A stretch of 64,000 nt of DNA from Octopus vulgaris (taxonomy: Eukaryota). Positions 18,033-63,931 of the stretch are shown here, in pieces; within the stretch, counting starts at the first letter, position 1; every line of letters starts with the position of its first letter. The DNA lies in assembly GCA_951406725.2 (NCBI GenBank), contig OX597820.1, forward strand, positions 109,244,001 through 109,308,000, in the 5' to 3' direction. The notes below the pieces were generated by a model, which saw nothing but the letters and a program-made list of their open reading frames with translations, did not search any database and was not told the DNA's origin. Position numbers and translations under genes: made by a program.

Positions 18033-19471
18033 AATGCTGAGTCACTATCAGAACTAGAGAAGTTTCAGGTGTGGAAGCAAAGATTAGAATCGAAGGGCCT
18101 TAGAGTCAACCTAGCAAAAACCAAAGTCTTAGTTAGCTGGAAGGCAGTCAAACCACAAATCCCTTCATGTAGACGGCCCTGCTCGATCAGTAGAAAAGGC
18201 GTAGGTAGAGACTCCACAAGATGTACCCAGTGTAAACTATGGACACATAAGAAGTGCAGTAATATCAAAGGAAGGCTAACTGGGAAGATAGTTTTTGTAT
18301 GTGGCAGATGCTCAGGAGCAATAAACACTGAAAATGTGCAGAGAACAACTTTCGCCACATTCCAGGAAGAAAAACTAGAAGTAATTGATAGCTTCCATTA
18401 CCTAGGTGCCCAAATCAGTAGCAGGGGAGGGTATGCTGAAAGTGTAGCTGCTAGAATAAGAATAGCCCGGGCAAAGTTCAGAGAGCTCTTATCTCTGCTG
18501 GTGACAAAAGGCCTCTCACTCAGAGTAAAAGGTAGACTGTTTGATGCATGTGTACGAACAGCCATGCTACATGGCAGTGGAACATGGGCAGTGACTGCTG
18601 AGGACGTGCGTAAGCTTGCAAGGAATGAAGCCAGTATGCTCCGATGGATGTGTAATGTCAGTGTGCATACTCGACAGAGTGTTAATACCTTGAGAGAAAA
18701 GTTGGACCCAAGAAGCATCAGATGTGGTGTGCAAGAGAGACGACTGTGCAGGTATGGTCATGTGTTGTGAATGGATGAGGAGAGCTGTGTAAAAAAGTGT
18801 CACACCCTAGCAGTTGAGGGAACTAACGGAAGCGGTAGACCCAGGAAGACCTGGAATGAGGTGGTGAAGCACAACCTTCGAACATTAGGCCTCACTGAGG
18901 CAATGACTAGTGACCGAGACATTTGGAGATATGCTGTGCTTCAGAAGACCCAGCAAGCCAAGTGAGACTATAACCATGCCAGTGCTGTATAACCAGCTCA
19001 TTTAAGAGTACCCTTCAATCATTGGACAATGAACTCTGCTTGCGAAGACCTGTTGAGGCAAGTGAAAATGCTGTTGTGGCTGATGACAGTATTGCCTGAT
19101 TGGCACCCATGCCAGTGGAATGTTAAAAGCACCATTTGAGTGTGATCGTTGCCAGGGCTGCTGACTGGCTCTCATGCCGGTGGCATGTAAAAATAAGCAC
19201 CATTTGAGCGTGGTTGTCACTGTGTAGACTGGCTCCTGTGTAGGTGGCACATAAAAAACACCATTTGAACATGGCCAGTGCCAGCACTACATGAGTGGCA
19301 CGTAAAAGCACCCACTACACTCTCAGAGTGGTTGGATTTAGGAAGGGCATCCAGCTGTAGAAACTTTACCAGATCAGATTGGAGACTGGTGCAGCCTTCT
19401 GGCTCGCCGACCCTCATTCAAACCATCCAACCCATGCCAGCATGGGAAACGGACGTTAAACGACGATGATG
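18033..19471 (+). mobile_element. RTE-clade LINE, 5'-truncated, with PHD-like insertion, 3' UTR sub-repeats and (GAT)n tail
   Basis: AESLSELEKFQVWKQRLESKGLRVNLAKTKVL..SFHYLG..KGRLFDACVRTAMLHGS..; premature stop at 18768-18770; tail as in other copies. Confidence 0.92.
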
Positions 19472-20785
19472 AATTTAATTACAGTTATGTTGAAAAAATT
19501 ACTTTTGAGAACTACTCCACCCTTTCTCAAAAAGGCTCTGAAAGAAATCTTTGTAGAAAGGATAGTACAATGCTAACACTAATTATTGAATACATGTTTT
19601 TCATTATTTTATTGCAATCTTAATCTCTCTCTTTTAAACAAACTGAAATGTGGGTCATCCTCTATGCGGTCATTAAGTATGCTAGAAGTAGCTGTAATCA
19701 CATGGGTCTCAAAAGTAATTATTTTTTTTTTCTGGCAACATAATTGTAATTAAATCATCAAAGTGTATCAGAAAAGCAAAGCTGAGATGCCTAAAATCTC
19801 TCTCTCTCTCTCTCTCTTTCATACACACACACATACACGCACTTTTTACCACATTAAATTCTTATATATAAACATTGTCTAAACCATCTGGAAGTTATTT
19901 GTTGAAAATTTTATTAAAAAATATCTATTCTTCTGAAAGCTATGAAGAAACAAATTCCTCTCCCAAAAAGAAAAGTTTTTCACAACAAATTCCAATATGA
20001 TTGTAATCTACACCATCTGAAATGTATTTGTAGAAACTTCCATTAGTAAATATCCATTTTGCAGAAAGTTATGAGAAAACAGATTCAGAGGACACACTTC
20101 TGTAGTTACACCCTAAATTTACTGGGGGAGTGAGTACTGTTAGATGACATAAAGGAAAATTTCATGTAGTATACAAGAAAAATTACTCAAATGTGTAAAT
20201 ATCACTTAGCAACTGACAGAAAACAGTCCAGAGGGCAACCTTTCTGCTAGTAACAGTAATGAACGTGTTGTGTATAATGCTTAGGTTCATTATGACTCAT
20301 TGGGAGGGCAGAAAGCAGTAATAAGTGGAGAAAGATAGCAATGGTTCCTAAACGTAAATGCATAGTACACAGGATAAAACACCAGACATCATCATTTTCA
20401 CTATTTTAATGTCTACTTTTCTGTGATGGATAGGTTCATAATGGCATATTTTTGTGTGTACCATTCATTTCATTACAGCTTTGACTTATCTATAACACTC
20501 TACAACTAAGATCTGATCTCACCATCTTTTCTCTTGTCTTCTTTGATTTGCCTCTATCACTGAGCCAACAGCATATCTAACCTTGTTTTGATGTAAAGAA
20601 GGAGAGTTGAATGGTGAGAGGAGTCAAATATCATGTTGATAGTGCTAAACACTAAAAAATAAAACTTTGGGAACCAGAACATTCTGATCTTTGGAATACA
20701 TAACTAATGTATCAGTTAAGACTTTTAAAATATATGTTGACAATTTCATAAGTATTCTAATTTGTCTTTCTTCATTTCTCTGTAG

Positions 20786-21397: not shown

Positions 21398-24300
21398 CTT
21401 TATTTAAAAGCAGCAGAAATATAACAAAAGCTGTTACTCAGAGTTTCATGTTCTTGTTCGTTTGACATCATCATCATCATCATTGTTTAATGTCCGCTTT
21501 CCATGCTAGCATGGGTTGGACGATTTGACTGGGGTCTGGCGAACCAGATGGCTGCACCAGACTTCAATCTGATCTAGCAGAGTTTCTACAGCTGGATGCC
21601 CTTCCTAACGCCAACCATTCCGAGAGTGTAGTGGCTGCTTTTACGTGCCACCGGCATGAGGGCCAGTCAGGTGGTATTGGCAACGGCCACGCTCAAATGG
21701 TGCTTTTTATGTGCCACTTGCACAGGAGACAGTCCAGTGGCACTGGCAACAACCTCGTTCGAATGTTTTTTCATGTGCCACCAGCACAAGTGCCAGTAAG
21801 GCGATGCAGGTAACGATCACGCTCGAATGGTGTTTTTTATGTGCCACCGGCACAGAGGCCAGCTTGTTGCTCTGGCAACAATCATGCTCGTATGGTACTC
21901 TTTGCGCTCCACTAGCATGGATGCCAGTCATCGAATTTGATTTCGATTTCACTTGTCTCAACAGGTCTTCCCAAGCAGAGTTTAATGTCCAATGAAGGAA
22001 AGGTATGCATAAGTGGGCTGGTTACACCCCTGGCATAGGCCACGAGGTTATGGTCTCACTTGAGCTTACTGAGTCTTCTCAAGCACAGCATATTTCTAAA
22101 GGTCTCGGTCACTAGTCATTGCCTCAGCGAGGCCCAATATTCGAAGGTCGTGCTTCACCACCTCATCCCAGGTCTTCCTAGATCTACCTCTTCCACAGGT
22201 TCCCTCAACCGCTAGGGTGTGGTACTTTTTCACACAGCTATCCACATCCATTCTCTCCACATGGCCATACCAGCACAGTCGTCTCTCTTGCATACCACAT
22301 CTGATGTTTCTTAGGTCCAACTTTTCTCTCAGGGCACTAACACTGTCGAGTATGAACACTGACATTACACATCCATCGGATCATACTGGCTTCATTCCTT
22401 GCAAGCTTACGCATGTCCTCAGCAGTCACAGCCCATGTTTCATTGCCATGTAGCATGGCTGTTCATACACATGCATCATACAGTCTACCTTTTACTCTGC
22501 GCGAGAGGCCCTTTATCACCAGCAGAGTTAAGAGCTCTCTGAACTTTGCCCTAGCTATTCTTATTCTAGCAGCTACACTTTCAGCGCACCCTCCTCCGCT
22601 ACTGACTTGGTCACCTAGGTAACGGAAGCTATCAATTACTTCTAGTTTTTCTTCCTGGAATGTGGCGGAAATTGTACTCTGCATATTTTCAGTGTTTATT
22701 GCTCCTGAGCACCAGTTAGCCTTCCTTTGATATTGCTGCACCTCTTATGTGTCCATAGCTTACACTGGGTACATCTTATGGAGTCTCTACCTACGCTTTT
22801 TCTATAGATCGAGCAGGGCCATCTACCTGAAGGGATTTGTGGTTTACCTGCCTTCCTACTTATTAGGACTTTGGTTTTAGCTAGGCCCTTCAATTCTAAT
22901 CCTTGTTTTCACACTTGAAGCTTTTCCTCTAGTTCTGATAGTGACTCAGCAATTAGAGCAAGGTCGTTAGCATAGAGGAGCTCCCAGGAGCATCCTGTCT
23001 TGAATTCCTCCGTTATTGCCTGGAGGACTATGATAAATAGGAGGGAACCTTGGTCAACAGTTTTGTTAAAATGGAACAGAAATAACGATATAATCAAAAC
23101 TAGTTAAAGGAGACACCCTTAAAAATGGATTCGTTTCATTGGTCCTTTCAATTAACGGTCTGAAGCATACAATGGACAAAATAAATGAATTCAATATAAA
23201 TTCATCCTACTGTAAAATCAAAGAAAACTTTAAATTGAAGAGTGGATTTGAAGTGCATATTGTAAATAATTACATAGGAAATACAAATCAATTAATACAC
23301 TAAAATTAACATTTTCATACTGCATGACATAAATATTTTACAACAGTATATACCCATACTAGACCAGCTATAATATACATATATACAGCAAAATACACAG
23401 ATGCATGCACATAGTTACATACATATGCAGGCATATATGTAAGACATAAATATACGCACAAATACACATATACATATATGCACACAACCATACGCATGTA
23501 CAAAAATCTCTATGTCACGTTGAAAGGCCAGGTTTCATTTTCTTTTAATTCCCAGACATATTTTGCCAGGCTGGTCTTTGTCCTATTTTTGGGGTATTGG
23601 AAGAAATTTCTATGAGAATAAAATCGGTACTTGAAAGTATTTTCAGAAGCCCCTGTGTAAGTTCTATATTCATGTGAGCCTTCTATTTGCACTTTGGCTC
23701 TATACACAATTCCTCTCCAGACATTTTCCTTCTAACAGACAGGAGGTCCCATCTTTGCAATTGTAATTCTTGGGAAAAGAATCGGCAGTGTGGTTATTTG
23801 CAATTATCTTATTGTTGTGTTGGTTAATGAAAGAGGCAAAGTTTTTGCAACAAGAATAGCTGATCTTAAGCATTTTTCTATTAAATATTCTATAAAACTT
23901 ATGGTTAGCTTGAAATTGTCTAGAGAGTAATTCTAAGAATTCCCTACCTACATTTGTTTTTACAGCCATATTAACAGCTCGGTTGAACCACAAAACCCTC
24001 CTTGTCATAGTTCTATGTGTTGCATTAATGGTAGCATCAAGTTGGTTATACTGGATCTTCTCAGAGAATCCACTATTCCTTAATGTGCTATTATAAAAGG
24101 GTGCAGCATTTTGAAATGCTGCCTCATGTGAAGAAATTGACAATATTCGTCTACCAACGTTACTAAGTTCCTAAGAATAACTGGCAGATGATTGGATTCT
24201 TTGCTAATATAAGATAACTTATCATTAGGCTTACAGTAAGGTTTGAATTTATCTGACTGTAAATCTAAATTTATATCTAAGAAATCTACACTTTTATGGT

Positions 24301-36457: not shown

Positions 36458-38625
36458 GAATAAAAAGAATTCCAACCTTGTCTGATTTTCACGTTTTATT
36501 TACAATCTTATAATGATATATTATAAGATAATATATTATAATTGAATAAAATAAAATGAAATAGTAGAATGTTAAATATTCATTCTGATTGAACTAGTAC
36601 TTTCATGCATTGAATTCTGCAATCTTCGGGTTCATGTAGTAGTGTTGACAGTCATGCTTCACAATTTTTGACTGTAGCAAGATGAGTGATTCTGTGCTAT
36701 AAATACAGCTGGGTAGGCTCCAGAGTGCTAGGTTTTGCAAACTGTATTCTGACCAATCAGTGTGTAGTATCACTCAATTACTTAAGCTGATTGGTTGGTT
36801 GAGCTGATTGGTTTAGGCATCACGCTTTGTTGGATAGGTCAAGAGTCCTGTATCTTGACCCTGGCCGAAGCAGCAATTGTTGGGTTGTTTTTAGAAATGT
36901 TGTAAATATCCTTTGTCAGAGATTTTTATATTTTTATATTTCAATTGTCATCATCATCATTGTCAGCACCTTAATTATTGTTGCTAGTGGTGATGGTGGT
37001 GGCAATAGAACTTTTAACCCTAAATAAGATAATTTTCCTGCTATCTTCGTCTTGATCACCTTTAGTATTGTTGTTGTTGTTAGTGGTCATGGTCGTAGCA
37101 GTGGAAGTAATACCTCTAAGTATTATTATTATTGCTTATTTAGCTTGGGTTCGAATTTATCAATAAAATTCTTTTCTCTGATTTTCCTCTCGATTTCACT
37201 TGGGCTGTGTAATTTGTAGAATGGAAATATTATATATATTTTCCGACCACATGTTGCTAGGTGGTTACTCAAAGGTATCTGACGGACCTCTGGGTCTCTA
37301 ATCTGTTGCCGGTGTACACGTGAGCGTTCTAATAGTGCGTTTCCCGTCTGACCTACATATATTTCTTCACAATTTGGGCATTTGATGCAGTAAATTAAAT
37401 TTCTGCTTTTGCAGTTCATATTCGCGTTTGTGAATATTTTCCCGGTTTTTGTGTTTATATATTGACCGGTATGTATGAATTGGCATGTGCCACATCGGCT
37501 ATCATTGCATTTAGATACCGTGAATGTTTGGTCTTTGTTGCTGAGGTCAAATTTTGCCTTTGTTAGTAATGTTTTCAAGTTTTTAGGCTGTCTTTTACTA
37601 AGCACCATAGCTCGATCCTTGATTATGTCTTTTAATTCATTACTTTGGGCAATGATTGGTAGGTTTGCTTTGGCAATGTTGAAGATATTCTGGTGACATG
37701 GGTTGTGTGTCACTATGAATGGTATGACTTGTTCTTGTTTTCCTCTTCCTTGGGTTGTCCTAAGTTGTTGTATAGGTATTTTTATAGCCCGCTGTATGCC
37801 ATTTTCTATAAGTAGAGATGGGTATTTTTGTTTGAGCAAAAATTCTCTTAGTTCTATTAGGCGTTTGTTCCTGATATTTGCATCTTCTACAATAGTACAA
37901 ATTCTTCTGGCTAGGCAGTATGGGATGTTACGTTTTGTATGTGGTGGATGGCACGACTTAAAATTTAGGTATTGATGTGTGTCTGTGTGTTTATAGTATA
38001 TATCTGTGGTGATGGTGGTGTCTTTTTTAATTACCATTATATCCAGGAATGGTAATTTGGTACTACTCATCTCCTTTGTAAATTTGAGAGATGGGTGTAG
38101 GTTGTTCAGGAGGATATTGAACTCTTCCAGAGTATTTAGAGATTCTGTCCAGATTATGAAACAGTCGTCTAGGTATCTCTTCCATGCCTTTTCAATATAC
38201 TTTCTAAATCCAGTGCCATAGTTTACCTCCACCTCTTGGTAGAGTTGTTCTTCTAAGTATCCCATTACAGAGTTGGCGTAAACGGGAGCAAACCTCGTTC
38301 CCATCGCCGTGCCTCTAATTTGGATGTAATTCTTTCCATTGAAGAAGAATGTGTTATTTTCTAGAATAAGTTTGACTGTGTCTAATATAAATGGCACTGT
38401 GAATCTGCTGGGAATCACTTCTCTATGTTTTTCTAACCAGTATTTAATCGCCTTTATTCCTAAATCGTGTGGAATATTGGTGTAGAGGCTTACCACATCA
38501 AAACTTAGCAAAACTGAATTTGTTTCTGTTGTTTTGGGAAGATGGGACAGGAAGTCGATGTCATCCCTGATGAAACTTGGTATGTAAGTACATAGTGGTT
38601 TCAAAACAATGTCAATAAAATTGAC
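36458..38625 (-). mobile_element. Young Penelope-like element (Neptune-like), 5'-truncated, uninterrupted RT + Zn-linker + GIY-YIG
   Basis: About 498 aa open frame: FDVVSLYTNIP, GTAMGTRFAPVYAN, RYLDDCF, PFLDI, CNDSRCGTC, NLIYCIKCPNC..YVGQTG; stop at 37129. Confidence 0.95.
36590..36634 (-). ncRNA. Minimal type-I hammerhead ribozyme motif (U4C core variant)
   Basis: Minus strand: UGAAC CCGAAGA u UGCA gaauucaa UGCA u GAA AG ua CU A GUUCA; perfect 5-bp stem I. Confidence 0.72.
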
Positions 38626-38626
38626 A

Positions 38627-42152
<3,526 letters not shown>

Positions 42153-44511: not shown

Positions 44512-45597
44512 CCCTTTCGTTACCAAACTGCCCGAAACTGCCCGAAAAAATTTTGGTTAATGTGACCAAGCCGCCCCAAACCGCCCGAATTTACCTATTC
44601 ATATTTAAATGAGAATATCAGAGTAAATCTCTTTAGTACATTCGTGAAAACACGTATTATACTTCGTAAACAGTTCAACTACAGTTTTGTACAAAAATCG
44701 AAGTGTAATTTTAATTCCGTGAATTATGGGAGATTTTTTTCCGAAATTTGTTCCTATTGTGTTTTCAAAATTTGTAATTCTGACAAAAAATGGATACGAA
44801 TTTCATTATATCAAGCAGCGAGTCAGAATTCGAAGGATTTTCTACTGAAGACCTTCATAAATCTAACTCTATGACTGAAAAAAAAAAGCATGTGGTATTT
44901 GATAATGAATCTGATGTTTCATTTTCTGAAAGTGAAAACAGTGAATCTGAGAGCTCTGACAGCGATAAAGAAAATGAATTGGCACCTGAATGGAGTGAAA
45001 ATTTAAAAACTGTTTCTTTCGGTGATTTTTCTGAAGAAACTGGACCAAGCCACAGACTTTCCCTGAAGAGTAAAGCCTTAAACTATTTCTTTTTACTTTT
45101 TCGAATGAGCCTATTTGAAATCATTACAGCGGAAACGAACCGTTACGCTAAACGTAAACAAAGCGAAAGAAAGGATAGTTTGTTATTTCCCACAACCTTA
45201 AATGAAATTAAGGCCTATTTTGCCATAAATATTATTATGGGTATCAGAAAGTTACCCAGAATAACAAATTCTATCGTAAAATTTTGTTGTATACCCAATT
45301 GAATATTAGCTAATAACCCATTTTCTATAGTGATGTTTGAACAAAATTTTAATAATTTTATATATTGTTGAATTTACCTGTATCTACCTGCAATTAGAGT
45401 CACTTTGTGACAAAAATTACAGTATAGAATTGGTTGAGAACATTTCATTAACTTATCTTCCAAAATTCATGTTAATATATTGATAAATAAAAAAGTTATA
45501 GTTGTTTAATGAAACCAGACTAAATTTATGATTACGTTAGAAATTAATTGAAACACATAAGGGGTGTATTTTGGTCAGAAATATAGTAACGAAAGGG
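44512..45597 (+). mobile_element. Internally deleted piggyBac transposon
   Basis: TTAA|ccctttcgttac ... gtaacgaaaggg|TTAA; ORF 44790-45302 is a PGBD4-like N-terminus (acidic tract, TAETNRYA, EIKAYFAINIIMGIRKLP). Confidence 0.93.
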
Positions 45598-48839: not shown

Positions 48840-50328
48840 CAGTGGGGGGAAATAAATATTCGTACATGTCAAAATTATTTATTTATTTAATTTCTAATGA
48901 AAATAAATGGGATATACCAATACTATATTTGCATACACATGCATGAACTAAGAATATGCAAAAGAAACTAATAAATTATAGTAACTAAGGAATTTATATT
49001 CAATTATAAATATCTAGGGATGAAAAAGTTTTCGTACAGAACATAAATAACTGATAATTTTGATTTAATACTTTGTAGCATAACCATTATTCAGTTCCAC
49101 TTCAACCAATTTCTTCTTGTAGTTCTTAATCACTCGCATGTTTCTTTAGGAATTTTTCTTCAAATCTGCAATGGACGTTGGGGCTCTTGAATGAATTTTA
49201 ATTTTCAAATAATGCCACAAATTTTCAATGGGGTTCAAGTGAGGTGACTAGCTTGGCTATTCTAATAATTTTATATTGTGATCGATAATCCACTTTTTGG
49301 TACTTCGCCGTGTGCTTAGGGTCATTATCCTGTTGTAAAACCAACCCTTCACAAAACTGAAGCTTTTCTACAGAGTCCCATAAATTATTGTTCAAAATAT
49401 TTTGGTACATCTCTGCATTCATTCTACCATCTATCACATGTAAATTGCCAGTACCATTTGCAGAGAAACACCCCCACACCATGATGTTGCTACCTCCAAA
49501 CTTTACGGTAGGAAATGTGTTTTTCGGTGAATAGGCAGTACCATCTTTCCTCCAAACAAGGCTACGCGAATTTCGTCCAAACAATTCAATTTTCAACTCA
49601 TCTGTCCATAGAACATTTTCCCAGAATGTATCAGATTTATCTTTATATTCATAAACAAATTTTAAACAGGCATCTCTATGCCTTTTGGTCAACAGCGGAG
49701 TTTTTCTAGGAGAGCGTGACTTCAGTTCATTCTTATGAAGTTCATTGCTGATTGTTCGTAGTGTAACAAATCTTCTTGCAACTCCTTTCTGGTGATCATT
49801 GCATTTTTTTCATTTCTTCACTTCATTTTTCTTAAAGATCTAGGGGAAATCTTGTGTGGTGCACCGGATCTTATTCTGTTTTCAACAGTTCCCAATTTTT
49901 TATATCTTTGAATAAATGAAGATATGGTAGAAAATGGAATACAAAGGGCCTCTGATATTTTCCTGTAACTTTTACCTGCTTTCCACTGCTCAATAATTAA
50001 GTCTTTCACTGAATTTGTGAGTTCTTTACTTTTCGCCATTATTACGATACTACTTTATGTTGTCTCAGTGCTGAATGAAGAAGCTAGCGTTTTGACACTT
50101 AAAAATGAAAACTGATAAGATTATTGGAACAAACGAGAAAGTTCTAGTAAAAAAAAATAATTTTAACAGTATTTTGTGGCATAGAAAATCATAAATTTAT
50201 TCTGTAGGAATACTTTTTAGTTTATGCATGTGTATGCAAATATAGTATTGATATATCTTATTTATTTTCATTAGAAATTAAATAAATAAATAATTTTGAC
50301 ATGTACGAATATTTATTTCCCCTCACTG
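48840..50328 (-). mobile_element. Full-length Tc1 transposon with long IR/DR-type TIRs and a frameshifted transposase
   Basis: TA|cagtggggg..cctcactg|TA, TIR over 100 bp, inner repeat ttttcgtacagaa; [44 protein letters not shown]. Confidence 0.94.
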
Positions 50329-51834: not shown

Positions 51835-54207
51835 AAGATTTTCATGGGGGGGGGGGTAAATAAACACACACTATATATTCGTTTTTTATTGTTATCGTTT
51901 CACTTATATCTGTTGCCTGTAACTCTTTCGTCCCACAATTGTGACATCTTCAGCAACTTCTTCATCCTCTTATATACTCTTGTTCTGCCTAGTCCATTCT
52001 GTCCTTCTATGCATGCATTTGTGTCTCTGTCAGTGTGTGTGTGCACACATGTGCACGCACACATATGTGTGTGTATACATGTCCTGTTTTGCATGTGTAC
52101 TTATGTTTATGTATATGGGCTTGCTATATTGTATACTATTTGTATCCATGCTTTTTATATGGTTGTTACTGCTATTGTCATTGTTCTTAGTGGTCATCAT
52201 CATTGTTTGACTGTGGTCGAGACAATGGAATTTACCATGCTACGCCAGACTTCACGGTCCATCATAGCATTACGGAAGTCCTGTTGCTGAATGCCTGTAT
52301 CCCTGGAGATTACATCAGGGTAGGAGAGTGTGCGCCCTCTGGTATTGCGAGTAGATGGCTTCCAGAGGAGAAGTGTAGAAATTGCCTCGTTTTCAGCTCT
52401 ACAACAATATCCAGCAAACTGGACTCTCCTACCTTTCACAAGAAATGACACAGGTGGTAGTTTCCTATATATCTGCATTTTGGTTGGATGACGCTTCCAC
52501 GAGAGATTTTGAGCTCTCATAAGGAGGCGAGTGTAGGTTCCATCCAACTGCCTCTCGAGCTTCTTTGATAACGTTCAGGTTTCTGAGCCATATAGTAGAA
52601 TTGGTTCGACTGTGGCTTTGAAGATTTCAAGTTTGAAGTCTCTACTTAGATTTGATGACCAGATCTTATGCATGTCATTACAGGCTGACCAGGCCATACC
52701 CTTTCTAGTTAGAAGATCTTTTCTAGATGATAATATGTATGACCCAAGATATTTGTAATCAGAAACCATATTTAAGGGCGCATTGTTGTGAGTATGGATG
52801 ATGCAATCACTGTTGGACAGGCACTTGTTTATATATTCAGTCTTGGCCTCATTGAGGTAAAGACCTACACAATTTGAGGCTTGTTCGAGAGATTGTAAAA
52901 GAGACTGGGCATTGGAGAGAGAATCACTGATAAGAGCGATGTCATCAGCAAAGTCAGTGTCTGTCATGTATTCAGCTGGGTGTCTGGAACTTCTTCTAGG
53001 TTTTATTTCAAAGCCCTTGCCAGAAATGGTATCAACTGACATATGTAGCACATAGTCAACGACAATGATGCAGTATTCCGGCTTTGATTGAGAAAGTGGT
53101 ACCAATACTCGGTATGTTGACCCTCCCCTCACGTTTTCTCTTCTGTTGCTGTTGCTGCTGTTCTTGACCCTTATTTTGTTATTTTTCTTGTATCTTTGTG
53201 TGTTTATGCGTCTGTTTATGTTATGCCATCATAGTTGTTGTTGTTGCTCATGTTGTTGTTGCAACCATTTGTGATGTTACTGTAAGTGGGTTTGTGTGTA
53301 TGTATATGGGTTTGCTTACTCTATTGTTTGCATCCATGCCCTTTATTTTTTATTTTTTATTTACTTATTTATCTCTATTTCATCATAAGTTTGTGCATGT
53401 TTGTCTTTTGTGTGTATTACACTGTTTGTATCTCTGTGTTTTTTTCCTCCCTTCTGTCTTAGTTGTCATGTTGTGTGGTGGGAGTGAGTGTTCTTGTTCC
53501 ATTCATGTTTTTTGTTGAGACTCCATCTGTCTATTACTATGTGTGTGCCCTCCATAATCTGTCTAAGTGTCATGTTTGTTCTATGAATTGATTATACCTT
53601 AACCTCTATGTTATTAACTGAGCTTCTATGTTCTACTTGAGCATGTTGGTAGAGCACTGACGAGCTTTTCTCCTCTTTGTGCTCCTCCTTGCTGCATACC
53701 ATCTCCCCAATGTAGTTGTTGTCTTGTTTCTGCACTGTACTTTAGTACACTGTGAGCTGTAAACTACATTCCTAATCTTACAGTTAACCTGTGAGTTCAT
53801 CCTACATATTATACAATTGTTCTCCATACATGGAGACCTATTGAAAAGATAAATTCTACAGGCCAGGGATTTTATGGCCTTTCTGCTACTTTAATCCATA
53901 GATTTACCTTATCTAATGCTTTTCTAAAAAAAAGTATGCCATTTCGCCACCAGGGCTAACATTGATGAACATGACACTCTGGTATTTTTTGTTGTCATAC
54001 CATGAGTTGGCCTTATCTATTTTTTCTGGCCCTTTCTGTACTGTTCCAAGATTTACTAGTGTAGCAAGCAGATCCAATTTGGATCACTCTCTATGATGGC
54101 CTTGTAATTATCCCTGGCTTCTTTGTACACTCTAATTCTGTCCTTTTGGTTGTAGCCAGATAATTGCATGTGGTGGATGAAGTGTTTTATGTGTTTTTCC
54201 AATTCCA
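51835..54207 (-). mobile_element. Degenerate Penelope-like element (family of 42153-43502), interrupted by a LINE
   Basis: KHFIHHMQLSGY, SWYDNKKYQSVMF, CIICRMNSQVNCKIRNVVYS; low-complexity 3' UTR; hammerhead-like motif at 51912-51957. Confidence 0.7.
52195..53075 (-). mobile_element. RTE-group LINE (different family, no PHD insertion), 5'-truncated
   Basis: TDTDFADDIAL, GLYLNEAKTEY, YKYLGSYI, PILLYGSET, RRVQFAGYC; (TGA)n tail. Confidence 0.88.
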
Positions 54208-62960: not shown

Positions 62961-63189
62961 TGATAGTTGACTATAGAAATATTGTTTTAATCCAAATGAA
63001 AATAAAAATTACATGTTGACACTTGATTTGGTGGAGCCGTTTGAGAATGCATAGGGGACAGACAGACAGACAAAGAATTTTGTATAGAGAGAGATATAGA
63101 AAACACGTTTTTTATTCCACATGGGTAGAAATATAGGAAATGTATGTCTGTGTCTGTCTTAGTATATGTGTGTGAGAGTGTATGTGTGA

Positions 63190-63931
63190 TTGCCAACTAC
63201 ACTGATGAAAACTGGCTATGTGAAAAAGCTATACTGGCTCCAACTAATGAAATGATTGATAAACTCAATCATGAACTTCAAAAATTAACAGATACATCAG
63301 AAATGACTTTTCCATCAATTCACACAGAAGTTGATCAAGATCAGGCTGTTCAATACCCTGTCGAATTTCTGAACACACTTAAACTCACTGGAATGCTTAG
63401 GAATCTTGACCCACATTGCCTGTGTAATGGAACTCACATAATTGTTACTTCCATGAAGCCCCATGTCCTACAGGCAACAATCATAATAGGTAGTCACAAA
63501 GAAGAAAATGTCTTTATTACAAAATTTCCTCTCATACATTACAGATGTTCCATTTGGATTTTTCGAGGCTTCAGTTTCCAGTCAAACTAAGTTTTGGTAT
63601 TTCAGTTAACAAATCTCAGGGTCAGTTCCTCAAGGTAGTTGGACTTCATCTCTCTACTACATGCTTCTCCTATGGCCAACTCTATGTTGGTTGCTCAACA
63701 GTTCATTTGGACACCAACAAAAAATTACACAATGAATATTGTTTACCCTGAGGTGCTTCTAGATTGACAGATTTTCAGTTCTAAATTCTATTATCATTAC
63801 AATTAGGTTTTTCTTTAATAAAATATAGATATTTGAAATGATTATGAGAAAAATATATATCTTCATATTTATTGTTTACTAATCTGAATAAGAACAGCAG
63901 TAACCCTGGCAATGCCGGGTAATTCAGCTAG
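63190..63931 (+). mobile_element. Helitron 3' end with a PIF1-like helicase pseudogene fragment
   Basis: WLCEKAILAPTN, YPVEFLNTL, MLRNLDP..LCNGT, RLQFPVKLSFGISVNKSQGQ, FSYGQLYVGCS; hairpin accctggcaatgccgggt then CTAG|T at 63928-63932. Confidence 0.9.

Follow-up and report, generated by a model that had tools for sequence, protein, structure and literature searches.

Why should a reverse transcriptase (RT) contain what looks like a chromatin-reading zinc finger? The question is raised by a 64-kb stretch of the Octopus vulgaris genome (contig OX597820.1, positions 109,244,001–109,308,000; the window, whose coordinates are used below), in which three copies of an RTE-type long interspersed nuclear element (LINE) have a cysteine- and histidine-rich module inserted in their RT. 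A first-pass annotation had described this module as a C4HC3 PHD finger, present three times with different ligands missing each time, lying between a KTKV and a FRYLG-type motif just after YADD, and perhaps steering integration by chromatin state. All three stretches translate as described. In the finger at 18180–18311 (plus strand), ligand 2 has become Ser, the first pocket aromatic (a Trp that precedes ligand 1 by two residues) is replaced by Arg, and the N-S-I-x-C motif no longer has its conserved Asn and Ile; the finger at 6515–6646 (minus) lacks ligands 4 and 7 and the Trp, and that at 22707–22815 (minus) lacks ligand 2 as well as ligand 7, the latter through a deletion that cuts the finger. 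The insertion begins at the KTKV end of RT motif 6 (18117–18128, plus), where the predicted β-stalk bearing the finger starts, and ends at motif 7 (FHYLG, 18393–18407, plus), which we take to be the primer grip. These motifs are 89 residues apart in the 18180 copy versus 26 in a PHD-less RTE of a different young family (52200–53075, minus; 26-residue linker at the finger site), which served as our control, and the module thus lies where it had been placed. The position relative to YADD needs amending: the motif is seen, as YAND, in the 22707 copy and in intact copies, whereas the 18180 copy starts just downstream of it and lacks it.

In the window, this young RTE family, intact elsewhere in the genome, is represented by three decayed finger-bearing fragments. 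The first (18035–18966, plus) is truncated at its 5′ end, covers the RT end and the thumb, and shares 87% identity with an intact genomic copy used as reference (L062); it has a single in-frame stop at 18768–18770 and a 3′ terminal region (19227–19472, plus) ending in a short (TGA)n. The second (5860–6693, minus; 3′ end 5396–5790) and third (22051–23045, minus; 3′ end 21466–21980) are 90% and 85% identical to L062, respectively. A protein search of the 2.8-Gb assembly (227 contigs) returned 62,822 first-look candidates, which is not a copy number; 136 matches were scored, of which 23 lie in open frames of at least 1,000 codons (one with a TAG inside the match), and all 20 copies fetched have frames of 1,026–1,162 codons. 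Since the genome contains natural copies whose open frame keeps all eight ligands, no consensus reconstruction was needed, and these copies, together with conservation among relatives, rule out a chance cysteine pattern or an artefact of merging broken copies.

The L062 open reading frame (ORF) encodes 1,040 residues, with an apurinic-type endonuclease (APE) at 35–245, the RT at 564–764 and the PHD at 780–823, followed by motif 7 and the thumb. Pfam recognizes both Exo_endo_phos and RVT_1 in this single ORF, which stops about 190 residues past motif 7, and finds no zinc finger in it beyond the PHD. A single APE+RT ORF, 5′ truncation and a (TGA)n short-repeat tail are the marks of RTE-clade LINEs; we take the family to belong there from its architecture and motifs, the tree of its relatives containing no named RTE references. 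Among 88 copies we found young groups of 40 (99.4% identical) and 13 (99.6%), one pair and 33 singletons, and between groups the RT shows a ratio of non-synonymous to synonymous differences (pN/pS) of 0.04–0.20, indicating purifying selection. By this evidence the family has been active recently. In the finger, subfamily pairs differ by only 0–3 synonymous and 0–4 non-synonymous changes, too few to score a substitution-rate ratio (dN/dS). Synonymous differences over the finger (L062:4874–5011, codons 778–823) are at or near the minimum in all six pairs (1–3 of 29 sites, 2–15 elsewhere). An RNA structure behind this pattern was unsupported, no stable fold being found (z +1.33); the subfamilies look mosaic, so that a single version of the finger may have been spread among them by recombination. 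The 3′ untranslated region of the young subfamily contains tandem units of about 165 nt (L062:5650–6490). The closest named protein is from Octopus bimaculoides (88%), and three gene models of that species (P0003, P0006 and P0159, one named diacylglycerol kinase and one myosin) contain pieces of the element including the finger, reflecting either mis-annotation or exonisation.

To what fold does the module belong? The isolated 46-residue L062 finger scored 26.9 bits against the Pfam PHD model PF00628, above the cut-off of 24 (whole ORF, 21.3), and the fingers of three relatives 24.3–32.7, whereas the decayed window finger falls short at 20.5. A RING or C1 identity was rejected, since the corresponding models (C1_2, 22.2; C1_1, 20.8; zf-RING_16, 13.6 bits) all remain below their own cut-offs. 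In an AlphaFold2 model of the RT and thumb (mean predicted local distance difference test, pLDDT, 93.6; 88–96 over the finger), the RT matches those of R2 and L1 (Z 24.9–20.5), and the finger is predicted to be a PHD fold borne on a β-stalk of an intact RT, between motifs 6 and 7. Folded alone, the finger reaches a mean pLDDT of 71.8 (80–90 across most of its length), and its best structural matches are Pygopus PHDs (Z 5.1, root-mean-square deviation 3.2, 53 aligned; Foldseek E 8e-3). PHDs occupy most rows of both structure match lists. From the ligands and the fold, two cross-braced zinc ions would be expected.

The finger is also conserved among distant relatives. Relatives were sought with PHD-bearing queries in both searches, so that the following shares are not informative on RTEs at large. 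In a first set of 150 representatives, many of them fragmentary, 132 span the finger and 82 have all eight ligands; in a second set, of 125 long relatives, the insertion is present in 104 and a short linker takes its place in 15, the other 6 not covering the site. All eight ligands are present in 103 of the 104 near-full-length insertion-bearing relatives, mostly 39–55% identical to the intact copy. Conservation of the first half of the finger (0.71) matches that of RT motifs 0–6 (0.68), with the stalks at 0.29–0.41. The nearest PHD-less relatives are 32–36% identical, and a tree of the RT core (118 sequences, insertion removed, fragments below 330 residues excluded, midpoint root without a named outgroup) separates PHD-bearing sequences from 15 PHD-less ones with support 1.0, a split that fits a single gain of the PHD. 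Many relatives already bear both Pfam labels, and the ESM Atlas gives the name PHD/RT to a cluster of 262 (Eukaryota, with Mollusca commonest, the phylum being known for 3).

Does the finger retain a pocket for methylated lysine? In Pygo1, the cavity for dimethylated K4 is walled by W366, Y341 and D352 and floored by V350 and A356 (PMC2726290). A relative's finger aligns with Pygo2 (E 8.8e-6) with the pocket positions in register, and four of the five, those of Y341, V350, A356 and W366, are matched, the aspartate D352 being lost. Across the 104 relatives, these positions hold Trp, Tyr or Phe in 77 (His in 9, Asp in 16), Val in 100, Ser or Ala in 103 and Trp in 102. The Trp divider, aromatic wall and Val/Ala base of a Pygo-type reader are thus all present, and the pocket is better kept than the lone Trp first remarked upon. 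In a 15-member subclade (support 0.77) Asp replaces the pocket aromatic; readers of unmethylated H3K4 are marked by acidic residues ahead of their first Cys (PMC3241642), and the substitution echoes this acidic patch.

The position of the finger within the RT may bring it close to target DNA. In R2Bm, insertion 6a (residues 672–677) occupies the interval from motif 6 to motif 7; it touches target DNA upstream of the nick, and its deletion blocks nicking (PMC10499050). A profile alignment maps 6a to residues 769–774 of the L062-type ORF, just ahead of the finger; by analogy, the finger would face target DNA upstream of the nick.

We then asked where young copies sit, using the observed/expected CpG ratio (CpG o/e) of their flanks; copies were picked by search score, and the controls were hand-picked round-number regions and the one PHD-less family. 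In a first look, PHD-bearing copies had a flank CpG o/e of 0.43 (34 copies offered 900 bp of usable flank, out of 52 whose 3′ end could be recognised), lower than arbitrary regions (0.66–0.71; p 0.007–0.03). A repeat set fetched afterwards (40 new copies per family and 20 new arbitrary regions, 3-kb flanks) put PHD-bearing copies at 0.34 (34 of 40 usable), lower than both the PHD-less RTE at 0.60 (39 of 40; p 0.0014) and the arbitrary regions at 0.67 (n = 20; p 0.010). The contrast between the two families was kept at non-microsatellite sites (p 0.03), at 1–3.8 kb (p 5e-4), and after repeat masking (0.29 versus 0.66, with arbitrary regions at 0.63; p 9e-5). In addition, 16 of 34 PHD-bearing copies sit at (TA)n-like sites versus 5 of 39 PHD-less ones (background 4.7%). 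Flanks of 12 host PHD-gene exons have a median of 0.315, and six histone loci lie at 0.92–1.1. In O. bimaculoides, methylation is described as concentrated in expressed gene bodies and scant at promoters and transposons (PMC9476566), and CpG-poor DNA therefore likely means gene body. Young copies are thus biased towards CpG-poor DNA that resembles host introns rather than promoters. The insertion bias foreseen by the first-pass annotation exists, but its direction is towards gene-body-like DNA and not the H3K4me3 chromatin of promoters.

This direction bears on a very improbable alternative, in which the finger reads promoter H3K4me3 and directs copies beside transcription starts. Its Trp and aromatic pocket positions are those of H3K4me3 readers, and TAF3, BPTF and PHF13 are among its matches; yet CpG o/e exceeds 0.75 in only 1 of 53 young flanks versus 15 of 40 arbitrary regions. 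Methylation at octopus promoters is scant, and the histone loci have high ratios. Selection could, however, purge promoter insertions.

The arbitrary regions (L107–L126 and L257–L276) are themselves bimodal, 14 of 40 lying below 0.45 and 15 above 0.75, a distribution that mosaic methylation would lead one to expect. The family's 3′ end has left relics in 13 of the 15 CpG-poor arbitrary regions, in 1 of the 7 intermediate ones and in none of the 18 that are CpG-rich, although the relic itself is CpG-rich (0.83); some of the relics may be non-autonomous elements that share this 3′ end. In the window, the terminal 300 nt of the family recur many times without an ORF, as short truncations or partners resembling short interspersed nuclear elements.

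A second explanation, which we regard as improbable though less so, separates the finger from the bias: it would bind a non-histone protein or prop the RT structure, and the bias would come from the endonuclease, a C-terminal AT-hook-like motif or germline accessibility. Non-histone partners of PHDs are known (PMC3241642), the bias was compared with a single control family, and a weak AT-hook match (GRGRPR; L062 residues 994–1003, Pfam E 0.06; window ~18830–18856, plus) is a candidate source of the (TA)n preference. That the Pygo pocket positions are retained over a deep clade argues the other way, as does the PHD-less RTE, whose flanks are no different from background (p 0.51).

These observations lead us to a reading that we hold at about even chances: the Pygopus-type PHD that this single-ORF RTE LINE carries between motifs 6 and 7 would act as a tether from the integration complex to a nucleosome by the cut, steering copies to gene-body chromatin. 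The endonuclease would nick the target, often at a TA repeat, and the RT would prime on the nick, while the finger would hold the neighbouring nucleosome through two surfaces. Its conserved aromatic/Val/Ser/Trp pocket would take a methylated histone lysine, and its basic face would grip nucleosomal DNA. The mark would be of gene-body type, H3K4me1/2 or H3K36me, rather than promoter H3K4me3, and the finger rather than the endonuclease would cause the regional bias. A broader version is more tentative, and we consider it possible but short of probable: that a histone-methyl reader was incorporated into the RT palm of a widespread RTE clade, at the target-reading site of R2, and serves for integration into active gene bodies, one subclade having switched from methylated to unmethylated lysine.

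Several points weigh against this reading. The fold scores of the finger are modest, within the range reachable by chance for small domains. The pocket Asp and acidic binding face of a Pygo-type reader are absent (D352 and E360 are not retained), and a shorter Gly-rich loop stands in place of the acidic Pygo loop. The finger carries a net charge of +12 with zero acidic residues in this family and +1 to +11 (median +7) in relatives, compared with −7 to +5 in 12 host PHD exons, some partial. H3 tails are basic as well, and repulsion is therefore a real objection. When the finger was co-folded with zinc and residues 1–30 of unmodified H3, the score was 0.03, which carries no weight either way. 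On the genomic side, gene bodies are gauged only by proxy, through CpG o/e, the flank data do not separate targeting from later selection, and the difference between the two families in the first look was not significant (PHD-less RTE 0.57, n = 25; p 0.13). The link between finger and bias is one family versus one family, and the two differ also in endonuclease, C-terminus and, slightly, age (99.4% versus 98.5% identity among copies, over different stretches). Moreover, the PHD-less family is as young and has been just as successful, and the finger is therefore dispensable for RTE mobility.

The charge suggests a further alternative, rather unlikely but the likeliest of the three, in which the PHD fold is reused as a nucleic-acid grip on target DNA, as in R2 6a, or on element RNA, replacing the C-terminal zinc knuckle that this ORF lacks, with histones left unread. 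The pocket half has 0–1 acidic residues in 97 of 103 relatives, and the shared site with 6a, the lack of a further Pfam zinc finger before the end of the ORF and the (TA)n preference all agree with such a role. Nevertheless, the pocket Val, Asn, Ser and Trp are better conserved than most basic residues, whose positions vary, and a kilobase-wide bias, seen also at non-microsatellite insertions, is hard to obtain from a DNA grip. Taken together, the pocket argues for a lysine ligand, and the charge speaks against a free H3 tail as sole partner and in favor of contact with DNA; we favor the nucleosome as partner because it would supply both lysine and DNA.

Other elements occupy the remainder of the window. 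A fourth RTE copy (38628–39096, plus) is truncated downstream of the finger and retains the thumb only; adjoining it at 38628 is a 553-codon minus-strand frame that we take to be a Penelope RT with GIY-YIG, the two together taking up 37129–39096. Fragments at 15650–16280, 44784–45302, 49225–49809 and 63129–63590 are, judging by their motifs, presumably mariner-, piggyBac-, Tc1- and Helitron-like, respectively.

Target choice by APE-type LINEs is usually credited to the endonuclease. If our reading holds, a reader inside the RT would add a second route of target choice, at the level of chromatin, and could explain the packing of this very abundant family into gene-body-like DNA. It would also single out the motif 6–7 site as one where targeting modules are tolerated, which is of relevance to LINE-based gene insertion tools. 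We found no description of a PHD inside a LINE RT in the literature searched, whose scope excluded Repbase Reports and most subscription journals; the architecture may already be known to curators, because the ESM Atlas cluster name and Pfam labels display it. A young single-ORF octopus RTE, RTE-2_OV of O. vulgaris, is reported to encode 1,109 aa with a C2H2 finger (PMC9115989; compared by description only), and the O. bimaculoides RTE of that study could be this family; 'PHD' is absent from eight of its supplementary files, and four further files may hold the element.

Compared with other RTE-clade LINEs, our element shares the single APE+RT ORF, 5′ truncation and short-repeat tail, and differs in about 63 extra residues, including the PHD, between motifs 6 and 7. 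PHDs of CR1/L2 LINEs, a different superfamily, occur in ORF1 or on the N-terminal side of the endonuclease, outside the RT; the available sections of PMC4120745 describe none inside it, give Pygopus (2vpb, 3zpv) as the top structural matches and propose a role in integration targeting. Shuffling from another LINE would be a likely origin of our finger, because these PHDs likewise match Pygopus best. Relative to the Pygopus PHD, its best match in sequence and fold, the finger shares the Y341, V350, A356, I357 and W366 positions, whereas it lacks D352, E360, the acidic loop and the long BCL9-binding loop 2, and its surface is basic rather than acidic. R2Bm 6a likewise lies between motifs 6 and 7, but is a short sequence-reading loop of a site-specific element and not a folded zinc domain. 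Finally, two other systems join a chromatin reader to an enzyme that acts on DNA. Chromoviruses, with their chromodomain-bearing long terminal repeat retrotransposon integrases, couple one to the integrating enzyme. RAG2-PHD couples one to a DNA-cutting enzyme (PMC3241642). Both employ other enzymes and domains; here, the putative reader would sit in the palm of the polymerase itself.
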